A DNA stretch of 64,000 nucleotides from Escherichia coli (lineage in GTDB: Bacteria; Pseudomonadota; Gammaproteobacteria; Enterobacterales; Enterobacteriaceae): assembly GCF_016026235.1 (NCBI RefSeq), contig NZ_CP065613.1; one strand, 5' to 3'. Of the stretch, positions 11,226 to 27,345 are shown one piece after another. The first letter of the stretch is position 1. Every line of letters starts with the position of its first letter. A program made the translations under genes and the position numbers. Below the pieces are notes generated by a model. The model had not been told where the DNA came from. It ran no database searches and saw only the letters and a program-made list of their open reading frames with translations.

Positions 11226-12728
11226 TTACCTTTTTCTCCCCCCCAGCAAACTCCCCAACATTCCACGCACAATCTGATTCGTCACCTGGCGGGCGGCGCT
11301 TTTCGCCATTGTTTGCACAACACCATCTTTCTTCCCGCCGCGTGGTCCGGTAGTGCCGAACAAAATATCCTTCAATCCACCAAGAATGCCGTCATCTACC
11401 GCTACCTCTTTCCCTTTCGCGGGGGGATTATTTTGCTGCTCGGTGCTTGCCTGTACGCCTTTTTGCAACATCTCATAGGCGGATTCCCGGTCCACGTCAT
11501 CCTCGTACTTGCCATACACCGGAGAGTGATTAATCAAGCCATTACGCTCATCTTCCGTCACCGGTCCCATCCGCGAACAAGGCGCAATCACCATCGCCCG
11601 TTCCACCACAGAAGGACTTCCTTTTGCATCGAGAAACGAGATTAACGCCTCGCCGGTCCCCAGTTCCTGGATTGCCTTTTCGGTATCAAATGCCGGATTG
11701 GCCCGCATGGTTTGCGCCGCTACCTTCACTGCTTTCTGATCTTTTGGCGTAAAAGCCCGCAAAGCGTGCTGAACGCGATTACCGAGCTGGCCGAGCACAT
11801 TATCCGGAATATCAGACGGGTTTTGCGAAACGAACCAGACGCCCACGCCTTTTGAGCGAATAAGCCTTATCACCTGCTCAATCTTATCCAGCAGTACCTG
11901 TGGCGCATCGTTAAACAGCAGATGTGCTTCGTCGAAGAAAAACACCAGTTTTGGTTTCTCCAGATCGCCCGCTTCAGGCAATTGTTCATACAACTCTGAA
12001 AGCATCCACAGCAGGCTGGCGGCGTACAGTTTCGGCATCTGATAAAGCTTCTCGGCGCTGAGGATATTGATAACGCCTTTACCGTTGGCATCGGTACGCA
12101 TCCAGTCTTTGATATCCAGCATCGGCTCACCAAAGAAGTGTGCTGCGCCTTGCTGTTCCAGCGATAACAGCCCGCGCTGGATGGCACCAACCGATGCGCT
12201 ACTGATATTACCGTACTGATTCTGGAAGGATTTGGCGTTATCGCCGATGTACTGGGTAATTGCCCGCAGATCTTTAAAGTCGAGCAGTAACAGCCCCTGA
12301 TCGTCAGCAATGCGGAAAATGATATTCAGCACGCCAGATTGCACATCGTTGAGATTCAACAGCCGCGCCAGCAACAGCGGCCCCAGATCCGAAACCGTCG
12401 CCCGCACCGGATGGCCCTTCTCGCCAAAGATATCCCACACCACCACCGGATTAGCATGCGGTTGCCAGTCATTTACGCCGATATTTTTAAGCCTTGCGAG
12501 CAGTTTTTCCGACGCCGTTCCTGCCTGCGCGATGCCGGTCAGATCGCCTTTCACATCGGCCATAAACACCGGAACACCGATTTCCGATAGAGACTCCGCC
12601 AGTTTTTGCAGCGTGACAGTTTTACCCGTCCCCGTTGCGCCAGTAATCAGCCCGTGACGGTTAGCCATTCTCGGCAGTAAAAATAGTTCTGTGTCCGGCG
12701 TGCGGGCAATTAACAGGGGTTCGCTCAT
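11226..12728 (-). CDS. yjgR: DUF853 P-loop NTPase YjgR
   Basis: 500-aa ORF with Walker A GATGTGKT. Confidence 0.9.
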
Positions 12729-19072: not shown

Positions 19073-19157
19073 GCCGAAGTGGCGAAATCGGTAGACGCAG
19101 TTGATTCAAAATCAACCGTAGAAATACGTGCCGGTTCGAGTCCGGCCTTCGGCACCA
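19073..19157 (+). tRNA. leuX: tRNA-Leu (anticodon CAA)
   Basis: 85-nt sequence GCCGAAGTGGCGAAATCGGTAGACGCAGTTGATTCAAAATCAACC...GGCACCA with CAA anticodon loop, long variable arm and 3' CCA. Confidence 0.9.
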
Positions 19158-19320
19158 TTAGTACTTCCAAGAACATCCGAGAAAGTCCAATTATTCCTTA
19201 AAAATCAATGCTTGCAGCGACTTTTACGTCCTGTGTCTTCCGAGGTTGTCCGTTGAAATCCGGATGTTATTGGGGGCATAATTGGGGGCATCTTAACTTC
19301 GATTAGAAATGTGCCCCCAA

Positions 19321-20577
19321 ATGAAGCTTAACGCCAGACAGGTCGAGACCGCAAAGCCAAAAGACAAAACCTACAAAATGGCCGATGGTGGCGGTTTGTA
19401 TCTTGAGGTTTCGGTCAAAGGTTCCAAATACTGGCGCATGAAATACAGACGTCCCTCTGACAAAAAAGAGGATCGCCTCGCTTTTGGTGTTTGGCCTACT
19501 GTGACGCTTGCTCAGGCAAGAGCAAAACGCGATGAAGCTAAAAAGCTTTTAGTACAGGGCATAGACCCAAAAGTCGTACAAAAAGAAGCTCAGGCCGAGA
19601 ATTCGGGGGCATATACTTTTGAAACTATCGCCCGAGAATGGCATGCCAGTAACAAGCGTTGGAGTGAAGACCATCGATCGCGTGTTCTTCGCTATCTTGA
19701 GCTTTATATCTTTCCTCATATTGGTTCGTCCGACATTCGGCAGCTTAAAACCAGCCACCTGTTAACCCCGATTAAAAAAGTTGATGCCAGTGGCAAACAC
19801 GATGTCGCTCAGCGCCTGCAACAGCGCGTCACGGCCATTATGCGTTATGCCGTACAGAACGATTACATCGACTCAAATCCAGCCAGCGATATGGCCGGTG
19901 CGCTATCGACAACCAAAGCGCGACATTACCCTGCTTTACCTTCTAGCCGGTTCCCTGAGTTTCTTGCACGTCTTGCTGCCTATCGCGGCCGCAAAATGAC
20001 GCGTATTGCAGTCGAGTTATCTCTACTTACCTTCGTTCGCTCTAGTGAGATGCGATTTGCCCGATGGGATGAGTTTGATTTTGATAACGCCTGCTGGCGG
20101 ATACCGGCGCGGCGTGAAGAAATCGAAGGTGTGCGTTACTCCTATCGTGGGATGAAGATGAAAGAGGAACATATTGTTCCATTGAGCACTCAGGCTCTAG
20201 CTTTGCTGGATGAGTTGAAGAAGCTTAGTGGAGATAATCCTAGACTGTTTCCCGGTGATCATGATCCCAATAAAGTTATGAGCGAAAACACAGTTAATAA
20301 TGCGCTCAGGACTATGGGCTACGACACACAAACGGAAGTATGTGGGCATGGTTTTAGAACAATGGCGCGTGGTGCTTTGGGGGAGTCGGGGCTTTGGAGT
20401 GATGATGCGATAGAACGTCAGTTAAGCCACTCGGAGCGCAATAATGTTCGTGCAGCTTATATCCATACTTCAGAGCATTTGGACGAACGTCGATTGATGA
20501 TGCAATGGTGGGCGGATTTCCTATCAGCAAATCGTGAGACTTTCGTAACACCATTTGATTTTGCAAAAAAATATTAA
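19321..20577 (+). CDS. intB: P4-type tyrosine integrase
   Basis: Begins MKLNARQVETAKPKDKTYK; C-terminal catalytic region with HGFR...R motifs; lies immediately 3' of a tRNA gene. Confidence 0.9.
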   Translation: MKLNARQVETAKPKDKTYKMADGGGLYLEVSVKGSKYWRMKYRRPSDKKEDRLAFGVWPTVTLAQARAKRDEAKKLLVQGIDPKVVQKEAQAENSGAYTFETIAREWHASNKRWSEDHRSRVLRYLELYIFPHIGSSDIRQLKTSHLLTPIKKVDASGKHDVAQRLQQRVTAIMRYAVQNDYIDSNPASDMAGALSTTKARHYPALPSSRFPEFLARLAAYRGRKMTRIAVELSLLTFVRSSEMRFARWDEFDFDNACWRIPARREEIEGVRYSYRGMKMKEEHIVPLSTQALALLDELKKLSGDNPRLFPGDHDPNKVMSENTVNNALRTMGYDTQTEVCGHGFRTMARGALGESGLWSDDAIERQLSHSERNNVRAAYIHTSEHLDERRLMMQWWADFLSANRETFVTPFDFAKKY

Positions 20578-20668: not shown

Positions 20669-23409
20669 ATGATTACAAAAGATATAGTTGTTAGTGCATA
20701 TAATTGTCTTAAGTCATATGCTTACTACGAAAACTTAAATTTTTTCCTAAAGGAAGAAATCGCTCAATTTGAAGATTCTCTCTATGACGAAAAAATAGAA
20801 AAAGTGGTTGATTTTTTTGAAAATAATAATGACATTAACTTTAATGAGTGGCTAAATAAAATTGATGTTGAATTATTACCAAAAAAAATTGATAGCCATT
20901 TGGATATTGAGCAAACGAGCGGAGCTCTTTTTTTAAGTAATAATAAGACATCAGATGAATACAAAGTAGGTGCTGTAAATTATTTGATCGTTGCTCCTAT
21001 TGAAATATATTTAATAGAAACACTCTGGTCTATCTTTGTTGGTTCAATGCTAGATGACAAGTTTTCTGATTCGGTTTATGGAAATAGAATATCAAAAGTA
21101 ATAAAAAATATTCTAAGAATAGTTTCGATGCGCCAAAAAACTCCTCAAAAAATATCTTTGAAAGATACATTGATAATTATAATAAATGGCGAGATGGTGG
21201 TATCGATAAAGCGATAGAAGTTATAGAAAAAGAGCGAAATGATGTTGCAATTCTTTCTCTGGATCTTAAGGGTTTTTATTATAATATAGATATAGATTTT
21301 GATGCCATTGATAGAATTATTGACGAAGAACAATTAGAAGAAATTAAAGCTCTTTCTATGTTGTTGAATAGTAAATTGAGGTTGATGCATCAAAAATACA
21401 GAGAGAAAATATCTCCATATATTGGTGTGACACATTCAACTCCTTCATCAAAAGGCATTCCAATTGGATTTACTTCTTCTGCCATATTATCTAATTGGTA
21501 TTTAATGGGTTTTGATAAAGATATTAAATCAAAAATTAACCCATCGTACTACGGTCGCTATGTGGATGATATTCTTTTAGTTTTTTCATCCCCGGACATT
21601 AAAAAAGAAGATAAAGGTGAAGAAGTAATAAAATTCATAGAGCGAACCCTTAATGGATTCATTAAACAGGCAGCGAATGATGAGAAAGGCTTTACGTTGA
21701 CCGAGAGTTATCATGAATTACCAATTCAAAAGGATAAATTGATTTTTCATTATTTCAATAAAGATCATAGTTTGGCTGGTTTACAAGTCTTCAAACAAGA
21801 AATTGAGAACAGAAGCAGTGCATTTCGTTTTTTACCGGAAGAACATATATCTAGCGATCTCGATAAATTTGCTTATGATATATTACTTGATGGTTCGGCA
21901 AATAAATTTAGAAGTATTGTAGGTTTGGCAGAGAATGAAACTGAATTATCAAAATATATATCATCACATATCTTAGCTCATAGGCTTTGCAATCTTCCAT
22001 CGAATGAGAATACCTTAAAGCAAATAACGCTGTTTTTTAAAGGTGAAAATTCTCTAAGGTTCAGTCGGTTATGGGAGAAAGTTCTATCGTATACATTAAT
22101 TACAAGAAAATATGGATTTTCAATCGCCTTTTACAAACAAATTAAAGAATCAATTAATAAAATTAAGTGGAAGGAAGGTGATAGTGTTATATCTCCAAAA
22201 CTTAAAAATGGAATGCAGAAATACATTGATATTTCTCTTTGTTTGAATTTGGCTTTGTTAGATTTAAATGTCATTTTAGGTGATAAAGAGCCACAAAATA
22301 GAGCTTTGGAAGGTTTGAAATCTTTAATTAAACAGTCCGATGGAATGTCTGTTCTAATTGAAAGATTTAGAAGCAGTAATTTGATTCGTCATAATCTAGT
22401 GTCTTGGCCTTTAGCTAACTATACTAAATATAAAGGAGATCTTACTGAGGAGAATTTATACAGTAAGATGCATGGTATTCCACTTGATAATGATAAATTA
22501 AATAAAACCCCTAGATATATTCATGCTGATGAAAAGCAGCTTTTCGATTTGATTGATGCTCTTCATACAAGAAAACTACATAAGTTTACGCATGAAAATA
22601 AGCATCACTTAAAAAATTGCTCTGTTACTAAGATAAAAGATAATAAAGCTCTTGAAATAAAGGTAGGAATTGATGATAGAAGTGGTAATGACACAATAAA
22701 AGTTGCGTTGGCAAATATGAGAGTTGAACGTCGTAATATTGAAAGTGCTTGCAGAAAAGATCAGTCTCCAAATTTAAGTTATGAACGACAAAGAAACCTT
22801 TATCGTATTCTCAACTCGGCAACTGAAGAAAATGTGCAGATATTACTACTCCCTGAGTTATCAATTCCTGTGTCGTGGTTACCTTTTATGGCAGCACATT
22901 CAAGGAGAAAACAAATATCTTTGATTTTCGGATTAGAGCATTGGGTTATTAACGAACGCGCATATAATATTTTGGTTGAAATGCTGCCTTATACTTCAAA
23001 CTTTAAACACAAATCCAGTATGTTAGTTTTTCGAGTGAAAAATCATTACGCACCTAGTGAGATTACGATGCTGAATTCTTTAAGGTTAAAAATATCCTCT
23101 CCTAAACCTAGTAAACAACGGTATCATTTGATTAAGTGGAAAAACGTATCATTTTCTACATACAACTGTTTTGAACTGGCTAATATCGAGCATAGAGCAT
23201 TATTTCGTTCGCAGTTGGATATTTTATTTGCTTGCGTATGGAATCAAGATATAAATTATTATCAACATATCACTGAGTCAGCGACACGGGATTTACATTG
23301 TTATGTGGCTCAATCGAATACTTCGCATTATGGCGGTTCTTGTGTTCTACAACCGACCAGTAGCACTATTTCAAATAAGATATATGTAAAAGGTGGGGAA
23401 AACCACTGA
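20669..23409 (+). pseudogene. reverse transcriptase-nitrilase fusion (DRT1/UG1-like), with a -1 frame change near 21130-21155 and 3' end severed by IS insertion
   Basis: Frame switch between ORF 20669..21217 and the frame carrying RT motif A (AILSLDLKGFYYNID) and motif C (YGRYVDDILLVF); C-terminal nitrilase-superfamily triad motifs LLLPELSIP, FRVKNHYAPSE, STYNCFELAN; stop codon TGA supplied by the IS end. Confidence 0.7.
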
Positions 23410-24700
23410 GGGATCCCCAGAAAATTTAGTAAACCATTATCATATTGGTATACCGTTGCTGTAGAACTTTCAGCCCTGCGTCAAGTGACAGTGTGTTTAG
23501 TATGAGTGGAGAATGTCGAATCACATTCTCCGCCAGTTTTAATAACGAGATGACTCGCCTGTGCTTCACTGTATTTGCCTGATATTTATGATGTATCCCT
23601 TTGTTTTCCAGGCTGAAACCGCTTAACCACATAATGATACTGGCTAATGTTGCGATCAGACTCAATACCGTGACCCGCCCGGATGAATGACTGGCACCAA
23701 ACCGTAGTCCAAATCCCCAGCGAGGATTTTTTTCATCCCTGAAATTTTGCTCAATTTGCATTCTACGGCTGTATAATTTCATTACCTGTTTTGGCGAGAA
23801 CTCAGTACTGTTTGTGAAAATAAACCATGGTGATTTCCCGGCAGTACGAGCTTTAGCCGTCACCGATGGTCTGGTTGCTCTTTCCTTCGAGCGTTTAAAT
23901 CTACGACCTTTAGGCTTACTTTTATAAAGATAAAAATGCCCTTCATGTTGTGCATTTTTATCTCGACCCAGCAGGCCTTCACCTAAATAAATTGCTGTCG
24001 TTGATGCTTTTGTGCCTGAGTCCGACACCTTTTCCCAGCCATTACCAACATTGTAATAATGATTGCCCAGTACCCGGCAAATATAGGTCCAGCCACGGGA
24101 GCGGAGCTGTTGGAACCATCGCCCCTGAAAACCGGCATCTGTAATAACAATGACATCAGTCCCGGGGGAAAAGCACTCAGCAAGCGATTCCAGAAAACGC
24201 TCATGTACATCTGCATTCGCTGTCTGTGATGATGGAACGACACAACTCATCAACGGTAAAGAACGCCCGTCACATGCCAGGCTTGCCCGCAAAAGCTGAA
24301 AACGAGAGGCATGATAAGCACTCCAGTCAATGAGTATCACAACACGAGACATTCCCCGCGTAATCTTTTGGGTAATTCGCTGAAAAATGGTGGAAACCTC
24401 ATTTTGCAAATGTCGATTCCCCAACAGTCGATCCACCCGCTTTATTTTGTTTTTAACTGATGCCGTACCGGTTAAATGACGCCCGATACTGGTAAGTGTG
24501 AGGGAAGCGCCATTTATTACAGCATTAGTTGCGTCAATCAGTGATTTTTGACGGTAAAGATGCAAAGGGGCCAGTATGTTGTTAAGGAAATTTTGGCATA
24601 ATGAACGTGCAGGCATAGTGGTGATCTCCTTGAAATTGTTAGCACAATCAATTAGATCACATCTCACTATGCCTGTCTTGTTTTCTGGGGATTCCTCAGG
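23406..24700 (-). mobile_element. IS4-family insertion sequence (IS10-like), copy 2, flanked by 9-bp direct repeat GGAAAACCA
   Basis: Same element as copy 1 at a constant offset; duplicated 9-mer at 23397..23405 and 24701..24709. Confidence 0.85.
23426..24616 (-). CDS. IS4-family (IS10-like) DDE transposase
   Basis: Identical protein to copy 1; the ORF-track N-terminal extension crosses the IS boundary and is not part of the gene. Confidence 0.8.
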   Translation of the reverse strand: MPARSLCQNFLNNILAPLHLYRQKSLIDATNAVINGASLTLTSIGRHLTGTASVKNKIKRVDRLLGNRHLQNEVSTIFQRITQKITRGMSRVVILIDWSAYHASRFQLLRASLACDGRSLPLMSCVVPSSQTANADVHERFLESLAECFSPGTDVIVITDAGFQGRWFQQLRSRGWTYICRVLGNHYYNVGNGWEKVSDSGTKASTTAIYLGEGLLGRDKNAQHEGHFYLYKSKPKGRRFKRSKERATRPSVTAKARTAGKSPWFIFTNSTEFSPKQVMKLYSRRMQIEQNFRDEKNPRWGFGLRFGASHSSGRVTVLSLIATLASIIMWLSGFSLENKGIHHKYQANTVKHRRVISLLKLAENVIRHSPLILNTLSLDAGLKVLQQRYTNMIMVY

Positions 24701-24709
24701 GGAAAACCA

Positions 24710-24848
24710 TTGCATCCTAACTACTACTTTAAATATATATGCATTGAGAGAGGCTCAATATCGTTCATTCAGAATTAACTCCGATACTATTAAACACAAT
24801 CCTCCAGGGTTTGACTATAATGCTCTATTAGAGCGAGGTGAGAAATGA
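24710..24848 (+). pseudogene. displaced 3' end (last 45 codons) of the RT-nitrilase gene
   Basis: After removing the IS and one duplicated 9-mer the RT frame continues ...GGENH-CILTTTLNIYALREAQYRSF...ERGEK to TGA at 24846..24848. Confidence 0.65.
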
Positions 24849-25534
24849 GTAGCTTTTGGGAAGGTATTTTGTCATCAAGCATTTCATTTGCAATTATTGG
24901 ATTTGTTTGTAAGGCTTTTTTACAACATATTGATAAAAGAGAGTTAGAATCATTTAAAAATAAGTTGAAATATGAAAGTGAACAGAGAATTAAAGAGGAT
25001 GAACGTGCTTATAATTTTAAAAAAGCAAGAGATCTTGAAATCGGACGTTGGGGGTTAACATTACTTAGTGCTGCAAATGGTTTTTTAGGAAGGCTATGTT
25101 ATATTAAAGATCACAATGACCTATCGTCGGATCAATATTATATTGATAGTACAAGATTCTATCTATGCCAATATTTTTGCTGGGTACATCAATTCAGGAA
25201 AAATAGAGATTCATCTGTATTTTCACCAACTAATGATGAAATGTTAATAACTGAATTAATCAAAAATATTTCTATAGCCCTACGAGAGAACGATATTGGT
25301 TTTCCTTGTATTAGATCTCTTGAACAAAAGTATATAGGTGAAAGCCTTAGCATTGGTGCTGAATGTATGTCCTATAAAGATTTTATCGATTCTAAAGTAT
25401 TAGAAAACTATGCACCTCTAAATGATTTTGTTGAAGCAATTCTACAAAATAATAATAAAGATTATATCGATAAACTCGTTATCCCATTCCAAGATCTCAA
25501 GACCAGATTTGATGCGGCATTACAAAATAAATGA
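24845..25534 (+). CDS. hypothetical protein with N-terminal transmembrane helix, translationally coupled to the RT-nitrilase gene
   Basis: 229-aa ORF; ATGA start/stop overlap with the RT tail; hydrophobic segment ILSSSISFAIIGFVCKAFL; AT-rich like the RT gene. Confidence 0.6.
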   Translation: MSSFWEGILSSSISFAIIGFVCKAFLQHIDKRELESFKNKLKYESEQRIKEDERAYNFKKARDLEIGRWGLTLLSAANGFLGRLCYIKDHNDLSSDQYYIDSTRFYLCQYFCWVHQFRKNRDSSVFSPTNDEMLITELIKNISIALRENDIGFPCIRSLEQKYIGESLSIGAECMSYKDFIDSKVLENYAPLNDFVEAILQNNNKDYIDKLVIPFQDLKTRFDAALQNK

Positions 25535-25735
25535 TTTTTTTACCTGCGCGCAATGCTCTCCCCGCCTCGCCCGCCCGCTTTGCGGGGCGGTTTTAATGCA
25601 GTTGCACTGACACGCTCAGACCGCGCCGGGAATGGCGCGGTCTGCAGAAAATGAGGCAGGGAAACGCATGCAAAGCCATGCACCTTATCGATGCATGGCT
25701 TTTTTCAGTAAAAACAGGCGGATTTTCGGGGAATT

Positions 25736-26279
25736 TTACACAGACTGACGTGATGCCAGTTGCGCACTTTTACGCGAAAAAATCATGTTCTGCGCAGGGG
25801 TGAATTTTTCACGGCTGTCATCCACCGAAGCCGCGTCAGGCCTGAATCCGATGGTCGTTAAAATGTCGCTATCCTGTGCGGAATAATTAATTTTTTCACC
25901 CTTCGCAAGCCAGGACAGGAGGGCTTCACGCAGGGCATCTGTGGCACGCTGTATGGCACAGTTTCGGGCAATGGCCGTCAGCTCACTGTAGCCCATCAGC
26001 TCCGGTGCCAGTGCCGCCGCCAGTGCTGTGCCGTGCTGCTGCATAAAATCATTCAGCCGGTCGCGGATGCTGATGTGCTGAACGGCTTCATGCGAACGAA
26101 TATAACGACCGGCGGCCTGATTCACCTGCCATTTTCTGACTTCGATAATATTGCGTAATTCGTCCAGGCGACTGACGTTTCTGCCTTCTCCTGACAGAAG
26201 CCGCAGATATTCCTGTTCGGCCGCAGCCAGCTCATTTTTGCGTTGCAGCCATGCTGCTTTGTTATTCTGACAGGTGTCA
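25736..26279 (-). pseudogene. psu: P4 Psu-like (polarity suppression) protein, 5' end truncated by IS1
   Basis: 180-aa alpha-helical product recognised as P4 Psu-like; the first codons of ORF 25736..26293 are read from IS1 terminal sequence, so the native start is missing. Confidence 0.55.
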
Positions 26280-26334
26280 GGTAATGCTGCCAACTTACTG
26301 ATTTAGTGTATGATGGTGATTTTAAGGTGCTTGC

Positions 26335-26610
26335 GTGGCTTCCATTTCCATCAGATGTGCTTCCTGCTCCGCTACTGAAGGCGTGGTGCGTAACGGCAAA
26401 AGCACTGCCGGACATCAGCGCTATCTCTGCTCTCATTGCCGTAAAACATGGCAACTGCAGTTCACTTACACCGCCTCTCAGCCCGGTACGCACCAGAAAA
26501 TCATTGATATGGCCATGAATGGCGTCGGATGTCGCGCCAGTGCACGCATTATGGGCGTTGGCCTCAACACGGTTTTACGTCACTTAAAAAACTCAGGCCG
26601 CAGTCGGTAA
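26335..26610 (+). CDS. insA: IS1 InsA
   Basis: 91-aa product with zinc-finger CxxC...CxxC and HTH, matching InsA. Confidence 0.9.
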
Positions 26611-27032
26611 CCTCGCGCATACAACCGGGCAGTGATGTGATTGTCTGCGCTGAAATGGACGAACAGTGGGGCTACGTCGGTGCTAAATCACGTCAGCGCT
26701 GGCTGTTTTACGCGTATGACAGGATACGGAGGACGGTTGTGGCGCACGTCTTCGGTGAACGCACTCTGGCCACACTGGAGCGTCTTCTGAGCCTGCTGTC
26801 GGCCTTTGAGGTCGTGGTATAGATGACGGATGGCTGGCCGCTGTATGAATCACGCCTGAAGGGAAAGCTGCACGTTATCAGCAAGCGTTACACTCAGCGC
26901 ATTGAGCGACATAATCTGAATCTGAGACAACATCTGGCAAGGCTGGGACGGAAGTCACTGTCGTTCTCAAAATCGGTGGAGCTGCATGACAAGGTCATCG
27001 GGCATTATCTGAACATAAAACACTATCAGTAA
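26529..27032 (+). pseudogene. insB: IS1 InsB with internal TAG stop at 26820..26822
   Basis: InsB frame is split into ORFs 26529..26822 and 26823..27032 by one stop where IS1 normally has a Trp codon (VVIWMTDGW). Confidence 0.7.
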
Positions 27033-27345
27033 GTTGGAGTCATTACCCGGCGTGCGTGCCAGGTACAGTCGTTCGGCTGGAAAAATACGGGGGCTGAGCC
27101 TGCTGGCAACACTGAGCACAATAGTGCGGTGGCTTATTGGCTATCACGCTTAAAATAAAGGGGTAGATCTGAGACAGCAGGCCAACAGAATTAAAACGCG
27201 GCGGGTAATATCGTATCTGACATTAGCGAAGAATATCTTGCGATACTCCTCGCTAATTTTAAAACGAATGGTGCTGATCACCGTTCTTAATCACTTCGCC
27301 AGAACCGACCATAATATGGTGTTGGTTTATTAGCGCTGATTCATG

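Follow-up and report, generated by a model that had tools for sequence, protein, structure and literature searches.

Hairpins beside psu in an Escherichia coli island very probably belong to the cos region of a decayed P4-type satellite prophage

The window, a 64,000-nucleotide stretch of Escherichia coli DNA, contains a hairpin-rich interval (25535-25735) bounded on one side by RTasTM, the last gene of a cargo operon, which ends at 25534, and on the other by a minus-strand psu ORF whose end lies at 25736; the placement given in the first-pass annotation, between the cargo operon and psu, is correct. The genes and elements of the surrounding island are as follows.

19073-19157, plus strand: tRNA-Leu(CAA), identified with ARAGORN, with the integrase gene directly after it
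19309-20577, plus strand: P4-type integrase (Pfam Arm-DNA-bind_3, Phage_int_M, Phage_integrase), 88% identical in DNA sequence to P4 int
20669-24848, plus strand: RT_UG5-nitrilase, a DRT-type reverse transcriptase gene, broken into fragments 20669-21217, 21358-23409 and 24576-24848
24845-25534, plus strand: RTasTM, the last cargo gene (PADLOC PDLC03013, E = 5e-164, full length)
25736-26279, minus strand: psu (polarity suppression/capsid decoration; Pfam Psu, E = 7e-86), its 5' end removed by IS1
26280-27046: the IS1 copy truncating psu, with terminal repeats at 26280 and ~27046

We take the tRNA-Leu(CAA) gene to be the integration site of a P4-type element; P4 itself integrates at leuX. The element has lost much of its content. 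Fragments of the RT_UG5-nitrilase gene correspond to positions 1-150, 231-913 and 909-958 of the PADLOC PDLC02995 profile; an internal stop splits the gene at about profile positions 150-231, and in strain M19 (NZ_CP010221, around 3,870,300-3,871,800) the homologue of intact length likewise has an internal stop and carries a pseudogene annotation. The 3' end of the gene has been hit by an IS of ~1.3 kb (23406-24698; limits set by comparison with M19) that carries a DDE_Tnp_1 transposase and is associated with a target duplication of ~11 bp. In psu, a match to P4 (98.9%) holds up to 26279, where IS1 begins. Beyond IS1, matches to P4 and to the M19 element cease, and delta, sid, the cI/immunity region, epsilon and alpha are absent; chromosomal RpiR-family, PTS EIIBC and NanE-like genes come after IS1. 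Loss of the satellite genes that would follow psu suggests an IS1-mediated deletion. Since the M19 element, with identical cargo genes, still has delta, sid, its immunity region and alpha intact, the window holds a further-decayed copy, a relic in which the RT cargo is a pseudogene, psu is truncated and the remainder is deleted.

Within the interval, all three of the inverted repeats reported in the first-pass annotation were found where it had put them.

25571-25590, plus strand: hairpin 1, CCGCCCGC/GCGGGGCGG, 8 pairs with one bulge, followed by TTTT at 25591-25594
25617-25627 and 25634-25644: hairpin 2, CAGACCGCGCC/GGCGCGGTCTG, a perfect 11-bp stem with a 6-nt loop
25672-25682 and 25692-25702: hairpin 3, AAAGCCATGCA/TGCATGGCTTT, a perfect 11-bp stem with a 9-nt loop
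25703-25708, plus strand: the tail 3' of hairpin 3, TTTCAG, which together with the six-T run from 25700 has the shape of a plus-strand terminator

The six-T run (25700-25705) is made up of the last three stem bases of hairpin 3 and a TTT tail, and on the minus strand TTTGCATGCGTTT comes after the same stem. A terminator scan picked up hairpin 1 and missed hairpin 3 solely through its loop limit of 8. Hairpin 2, with a conserved core of GCGCC-N6-GGCGC, lacks a T-run on both strands. Folded as single-stranded DNA, hairpin 2 (z = -6.0) and hairpin 3 (z = -4.9) each surpassed all shuffles (0/200 as good), hairpin 1 was not clearly better than shuffles (z = -1.6; 9/200 as good), and the 201-nt region as a whole folded better than shuffles on the plus (z = -3.7) and minus (z = -7.1) strands.

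When 25400-26400 was compared with phage records by BLAST, the best match was phage P4. Positions 25572-26279 align with P4 10917-11624 at 98.9% identity, the match running out precisely where the linear P4 genome ends; in an alignment to the circularised P4 junction the match runs through the cohesive end into P4 1-27 and stops at 25545. The segment 25545-26279 is 98.9% identical to the end-junction of circularised P4, taking in the 3' flank of psu, the right end and, from the left end, its first 27 nt. In the linear P4 record the final base is the partner of 25572 and the initial base that of 25571; the cohesive-end sequence accordingly occupies 25553-25571, and the P2 record labels these 19 nt cosL/cosR. 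Staggered nicks would be expected between 25552 and 25553 and between 25571 and 25572. With a probability of about 0.93, we conclude that 25546-25735 is the cos (cohesive-end/DNA-packaging) region of a P4-type satellite prophage integrated at tRNA-Leu(CAA). The cos site of such satellites is an already known feature, met here as a decayed copy. The first-pass annotation was thus right that the hairpins are real, and missed the identity of the region that contains them. Its parts, with the adjoining end of the cargo, are listed below.

25535-25545: the last 11 nt of cargo-specific sequence, TTTTTTTACCT
25546-25600: the core cos (~55 bp), with GCGCGC, the 19-nt cohesive end, hairpin 1 and TTTTAATGCA, common to P2-type helpers
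25553-25571: the 19-nt cohesive-end sequence, ATGCTCTCCCCGCCTCGCC (complement GGCGAGGCGGGGAGAGCAT, versus GGCGAGGCGGGGAAAGCAC in P4/P2)
25591-25606: the conserved block TTTTAATGCAGTTGCA, comprising the first ATGCA motif and TGCA, 91% identical in 24 distant satellites and ~90% or more in helpers
25664-25702: the ATGCA-repeat block, with ATGCA at 25669, 25678 and 25691, containing hairpin 3
25709-25735: a satellite-specific block, AAAAA..GCGG.ATTTTCGGGGA.TT, reaching up to the psu stop codon, 74% identical in distant satellites and with invariant columns

By sequence alignment the cohesive-end 19-mer matches that of P4/P2 at 17 of 19 positions, the window differing from P4 by A for G at 25553 and C for T at 25558 in addition to a few point differences elsewhere. 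Both variant bases are present in other satellites and helpers, and their combination in ATGCTCTCCCCGCCTCGCC is rare (found in 1 of the 33 satellite representatives and in none of 110 helper-type rows). The sequence has the form of a rare hybrid of two common satellite 19-mer types, GTGCTTTCCCCGCCTCGCC and ATGCTCTCCCCGCCACGCC; the helper-type sites can be sorted into a small number of distinct 19-mer classes, CTCGTATCCCCGCCACGCC (30 sites) being one.

The P4 cos itself (NC_001609 / X51522; right end 11461-11624 joined to left end 1-27) has all three hairpins and the same order of psu, ~164 bp, cut site and hotspot. It differs from the window in its cargo, which is gop/beta/cII in P4 and the RT_UG5-nitrilase system here, and in the IS1 truncation of the present element. 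Alignment also places the core in P2 and in a Klebsiella P2-like phage, in both directly after the portal gene, where its parts are GCGCGC, the cohesive end, GCCCGCTT..GG.CGG and TTTTAATGCA. A conserved cos of 55 bp is cited in PMC9594776, where flanks beyond this core are reported to raise P2/P4 cosmid transduction more than 1000-fold; an effect of this size fits the presence of functional elements to the right of the core. A cos position downstream of psu, edging the psu-int hotspot, is the layout described for satellites in PMC9122126, and in the window the region likewise lies downstream of psu and borders the psu-int hotspot, a layout repeated in 93 of 93 satellite loci.

These loci form the satellite set (n = 93), which combined a Psu-alignment scan, a genome scan and P4-like loci from a pattern scan, and in which Psu is 38-100% identical in amino acid sequence. 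A scan of genome contigs with a single Psu protein gave 5 loci; diversity needed the alignment-based scan of viral contigs. A second, helper-type set was assembled by pattern scan of viral contigs and comprised ~106 distinct cos sites without psu nearby. The cos core is present in all 93 satellite loci, where its distance to the psu stop hardly varies, and across the 106 helper-type sites conservation of the core is 90-99% outside the positions fixed by the search pattern. The parts conserved in helpers are GCGCGC, the cohesive end, TTTTAATGCA..TGCA, CCGCGCC..GGCG and three ATGCA motifs, and the intervening sequence is not conserved. The ATGCA motifs of the window (25596, 25669, 25678, 25691) are invariant in 33 satellites and 80-99% conserved in the 106 helpers. 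Most helpers do not conserve the block at 25709-25735, which looks like the cohesive-end core (GGCG..CGGGGA) copied in inverted and interrupted form; AAAAACGGGGAAA occurs at a similar position in a subset of helper sites. One metagenomic locus (L125, URND01000141.1), labelled 'uncultured Clostridiales bacterium', has a psu-cos region 99% identical to that of E. coli P4, and its label is probably a binning or contamination artefact of a metagenome-assembled genome.

The pattern is sharpest in the 24 distant satellites whose Psu is less than 70% identical, where segment identities relative to the window are 85-94% in blocks and 24-41% in spacers. Identity is 94% for the cohesive end with GCGCGC, 88% for the left arm of hairpin 1 and 62% for its right arm, 91% for TTTTAATGCA..TGCA, 24% for spacer A, 88% for CTCAG with the left arm of hairpin 2, 85% and 49% for the inner and outer right arm of that hairpin, 41% for spacer B, and 88-93% for the arms and 75% for the loop of hairpin 3. 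Perfect stems of at least 6 bp were found at the position of hairpin 1 in 21% of satellites and 6% of helpers, at that of hairpin 2 in 45% and 38%, and at that of hairpin 3 in 94% and 19%. Hairpin 1 abuts the cos cut site inside the ~55-bp core common to P4 and its helper P2; its left arm falls within an invariant cos block and its right arm is variable. To judge from these comparisons, the alternation of blocks and spacers common to satellite and helper has the look of a multi-part protein recognition site.

A check proposed in the first-pass annotation was covariation across homologous loci, and in 33 diverse satellites none was found. Stems in the 33-satellite alignment were paired in 79.4% of cases versus 79.1% after shuffling, with a covariation score of 0.096 versus 0.090 (56/500 shuffles as high), and RNAalifold gave a covariation term of +0.07. 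At hairpin 1, 72% of cells were paired with zero compensatory changes, the right arm often being non-complementary. The inner 7 pairs of hairpin 3 are invariant or nearly so and do not covary; in 22 of the 33, its pair 130-154 reads A.C on the plus strand, equivalent to G.U on the psu-sense strand. Hairpin 2 keeps its inner 5 pairs in satellites, and its outer 6 are often broken without compensation.

Helper-type sites carry differing perfect stems at the position of hairpin 2, related by compensatory changes (one pair is CG in 30 sites and GC in 30); examples are GCCCGCCA/TGGCGGGC, CAGCGCCA/TGGCGCTG, ACGGGGCCA/TGGCCCCGT and CCGCGCC/GGCGCGG. Stems there reach 8 bp or more in 28% of sites versus 0.1% of shuffles, and the covariation score is 0.153 compared with 0.116 in shuffles (0/500 as high) and 0.06-0.09 in slid controls, with the caveat that related sequences can exceed the shuffle control even without structure. 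In columns 97-125 of alignment A3 (equivalent to 25617-25644), many sites, L104, L036 and L010 among them, have perfect, GC-rich, lineage-specific stems of 8-14 bp, and some helper stems at this position are flanked by A-runs and T-runs, like bidirectional terminators. In helpers, then, dyad symmetry or structure at hairpin 2 is selected beyond primary sequence, and such selection may reflect a dimeric protein, a DNA structure or, in some of the helpers with A/T-run flanks, a terminator.

The second of these options can be put more specifically: hairpin 2, and possibly hairpin 1, would act not as a linear binding sequence but as a cruciform or hairpin extruded on the supercoiled circular substrate, a structural DNA signal to which the ATGCA motifs add the sequence-specific part. 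The diversity of perfect stems across helper-type cos sites, their excess over shuffles and the helper covariation score are all compatible with this, and P2 terminase prefers covalently closed circular monomers. Concerted change in the two half-sites is, however, equally expected of a dimeric protein whose specificity differs between lineages; about 60% of helper sites have no significant stem at this position, the outer pairs in satellites are often broken and uncompensated, some of the helper stems resemble ordinary terminators, and the shuffle control is subject to the caveat given above. We regard an extruded structure as unlikely.

Less likely still is that the region consists of convergent rho-independent terminators, one serving the cargo on the plus strand and one serving psu on the minus strand, and that its conservation stems from that role alone. 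Certain features do have the right form. Hairpin 1 presents on the plus strand a GC-rich stem directly followed by a U-tract, as hairpin 2 does not, and was reported by the scan together with its T4. Hairpin 3 is an 11-bp stem with AAA on one flank and a T-run on the other, T-runs being present on both sides in the window; its extended form is satellite-specific, lies always just downstream of psu and tracks the presence of that gene, as the stem frequencies given above reflect. The psu-sense strand retains T3-4, GCATGC and T3-4 in most of the 33 satellites, and the commonest variant at pair 130-154 is a G.U on that strand, on which hairpin 3 is also the more stable in 30 of 33. This last asymmetry is weak evidence as to which strand is transcribed: hairpin 2 favours the other strand just as often (30/33), a control spacer is biased too (23/33), and composition explains much of it. 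Sub-threshold Rfam matches were to the terminator portions of RydC and Thr_leader.

A terminator role alone nevertheless accounts poorly for the comparative data. Terminators change compensatorily and do not keep their loops, whereas here loops and flanks are near-invariant and covariation is lacking, and primary sequence in stem and loop is, unlike that of typical terminators, maintained in helpers and across satellites that have diverged widely. Helper phages lacking psu possess these motifs too; hairpin 2 is without a T-run; in most lineages hairpin 1 has a decayed right arm, and about a third of those sampled by the 33 satellites have an interrupted plus-strand T-run after hairpin 3. Terminator-like sites in 24500-26800 do not exceed the number in shuffles (2 versus 2.6), and identity with the P4 end-junction would be left unexplained. 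A literature search brought up no direct evidence for a psu terminator.

Termination is plausible as a secondary role, for hairpin 3 in both directions and for hairpin 1 with respect to the cargo operon. Hairpin 3, which with its A-run and T-run flanks is like a bidirectional rho-independent terminator, is the best candidate for a terminator of psu (the late operon) that may also stop transcription from the hotspot. Hairpin 1, like such terminators in its GC-rich stem and T4, could at best be an opportunistic plus-strand stop for the cargo operon, since other satellites carry their cargo in one orientation or the other (PMC9122126). The extended hairpin 3 is missing from the two satellites that diverge most (L038 and L102; Psu 39-44% identical); in its place, the interval separating their ATGCA block from psu is longer by ~50 nt and holds another GC-rich stem, with T5 after it on the psu-antisense strand. 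This arrangement hints that the conserved trait is the stopping of transcription from the cos/hotspot side into psu.

The junction of hotspot and cos lies at 25545/25546, homology to P4 and other satellites starting at 25545-25548, and the left flanks beyond GCGCGC differ in every satellite locus. The block is present in 2441 of 5426 complete E. coli genomes; in these, homology starts at 25542-25548, and only 30 share the cargo flank. The gene beside cos in 8 sampled satellites encodes LmuB, PDC-M18A, PDC-M36A or an unknown protein, and an RT in none (0/8); it is gop in P4 and encodes a SIR2 protein in one E. coli match. Cargo of such variety beside one and the same block makes the region independent of the RT system.

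The suggestion in the first-pass annotation that a small structured RNA might be tied to the RT system, with the hairpins encoding a non-coding RNA that works with RT_UG5-nitrilase/RTasTM as retron/DRT ncRNAs do, finds encouragement in the proximity of that system and in the better-than-shuffled folding of the 201-nt region, and is extremely improbable given that the block lies outside the variable cargo with its boundary only 11 nt past the last cargo gene, is far more widespread than this cargo, adjoins cargo other than an RT in P4 and in all 8 satellites sampled, recurs in P2-type phages, and neither covaries in satellites nor belongs to an Rfam family. Searches of Rfam (E <= 1 over 20-32 kb and E <= 10 over 25450-25800) returned sub-threshold, terminator-like pieces only. 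The long-range pairing that dominates the minus-strand fold and lies behind its z-score, between 25550-25568 (the cohesive end) and 25653-25671, was rejected as chance, with 9.7 of 16 matches kept in other satellites versus 9.0 after shuffling. The cargo found beside the block includes gop/beta of P4, SIR2, LmuB, PDC-M18A and PDC-M36A.

Taking the region as a P4-type cos site, we can outline how it would work in a functional satellite. The terminase of a P2-type helper would recognise 25546-25735 on replicated satellite DNA, make staggered nicks on both sides of the 19-mer at 25553-25571, and then package the genome, the cos site doubling as the fixed border of the variable psu-int defence hotspot. 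Hairpin 1 would be a piece of the ~55-bp core that P2 also has, with a left arm held invariant because it flanks the cut site and a right arm free to drift, and hairpin 2 would be a dyad element retained at this position by P2-family cos sites. Hairpin 3 would arise from three ATGCA repeats spaced ~10-13 bp apart, to which P4-type satellites appear to have added AAAGCC/GGCTTT and T-runs, giving a stem-loop that in its extended form would most likely double as a terminator, of psu (late operon) transcription on one strand and of transcription arriving from the hotspot on the opposite one. From sequence comparison we infer that the ATGCA repeats are putative recognition sites of the terminase (small subunit), and that the hairpin-2 dyad may contribute with them to terminase binding. 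In this genome the cos site is probably without current function, because the element has decayed.

The region can be compared with known packaging sites at two removes. The cos of P2/Peduoviridae (cosL/cosR, NC_001895) shares GCGCGC, the 19-nt end, GCCCGCTT..GG.CGG TTTTAATGCA and three similarly spaced ATGCA motifs. P2 itself differs in having neither hairpin 2 nor the AAAGCC/GGCTTT extension that makes hairpin 3, and helper cos sites are flanked by the portal gene on one side and by the helper's own hotspot on the other. Primary mapping of the P2/P4 cos is said to be that of Ziermann and Calendar in 1990. In the cos of lambda (cosQ-cosN-cosB), a site of staggered nicking has short, repeated protein-recognition motifs arrayed to one side of it; the logic is that of the site in the window, and the two share no sequence similarity.

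For annotation, a hairpin-rich stretch beside a defence system in a P4-type island is to be read as the satellite cos and the fixed edge of the psu-int hotspot, and not as a candidate regulatory or template RNA of the cargo. Recognising the cos gives the exact cargo boundary (25545/25546) and exposes the island as a decayed satellite in which the RT gene is broken, psu is truncated, and genes for replication and immunity are missing. The one mildly new point is the comparative map of the extended cos, together with the compensatory variation of the hairpin-2 dyad in helpers: a small refinement of an old topic, showing which parts of the extended cos are common to satellites and their helpers.
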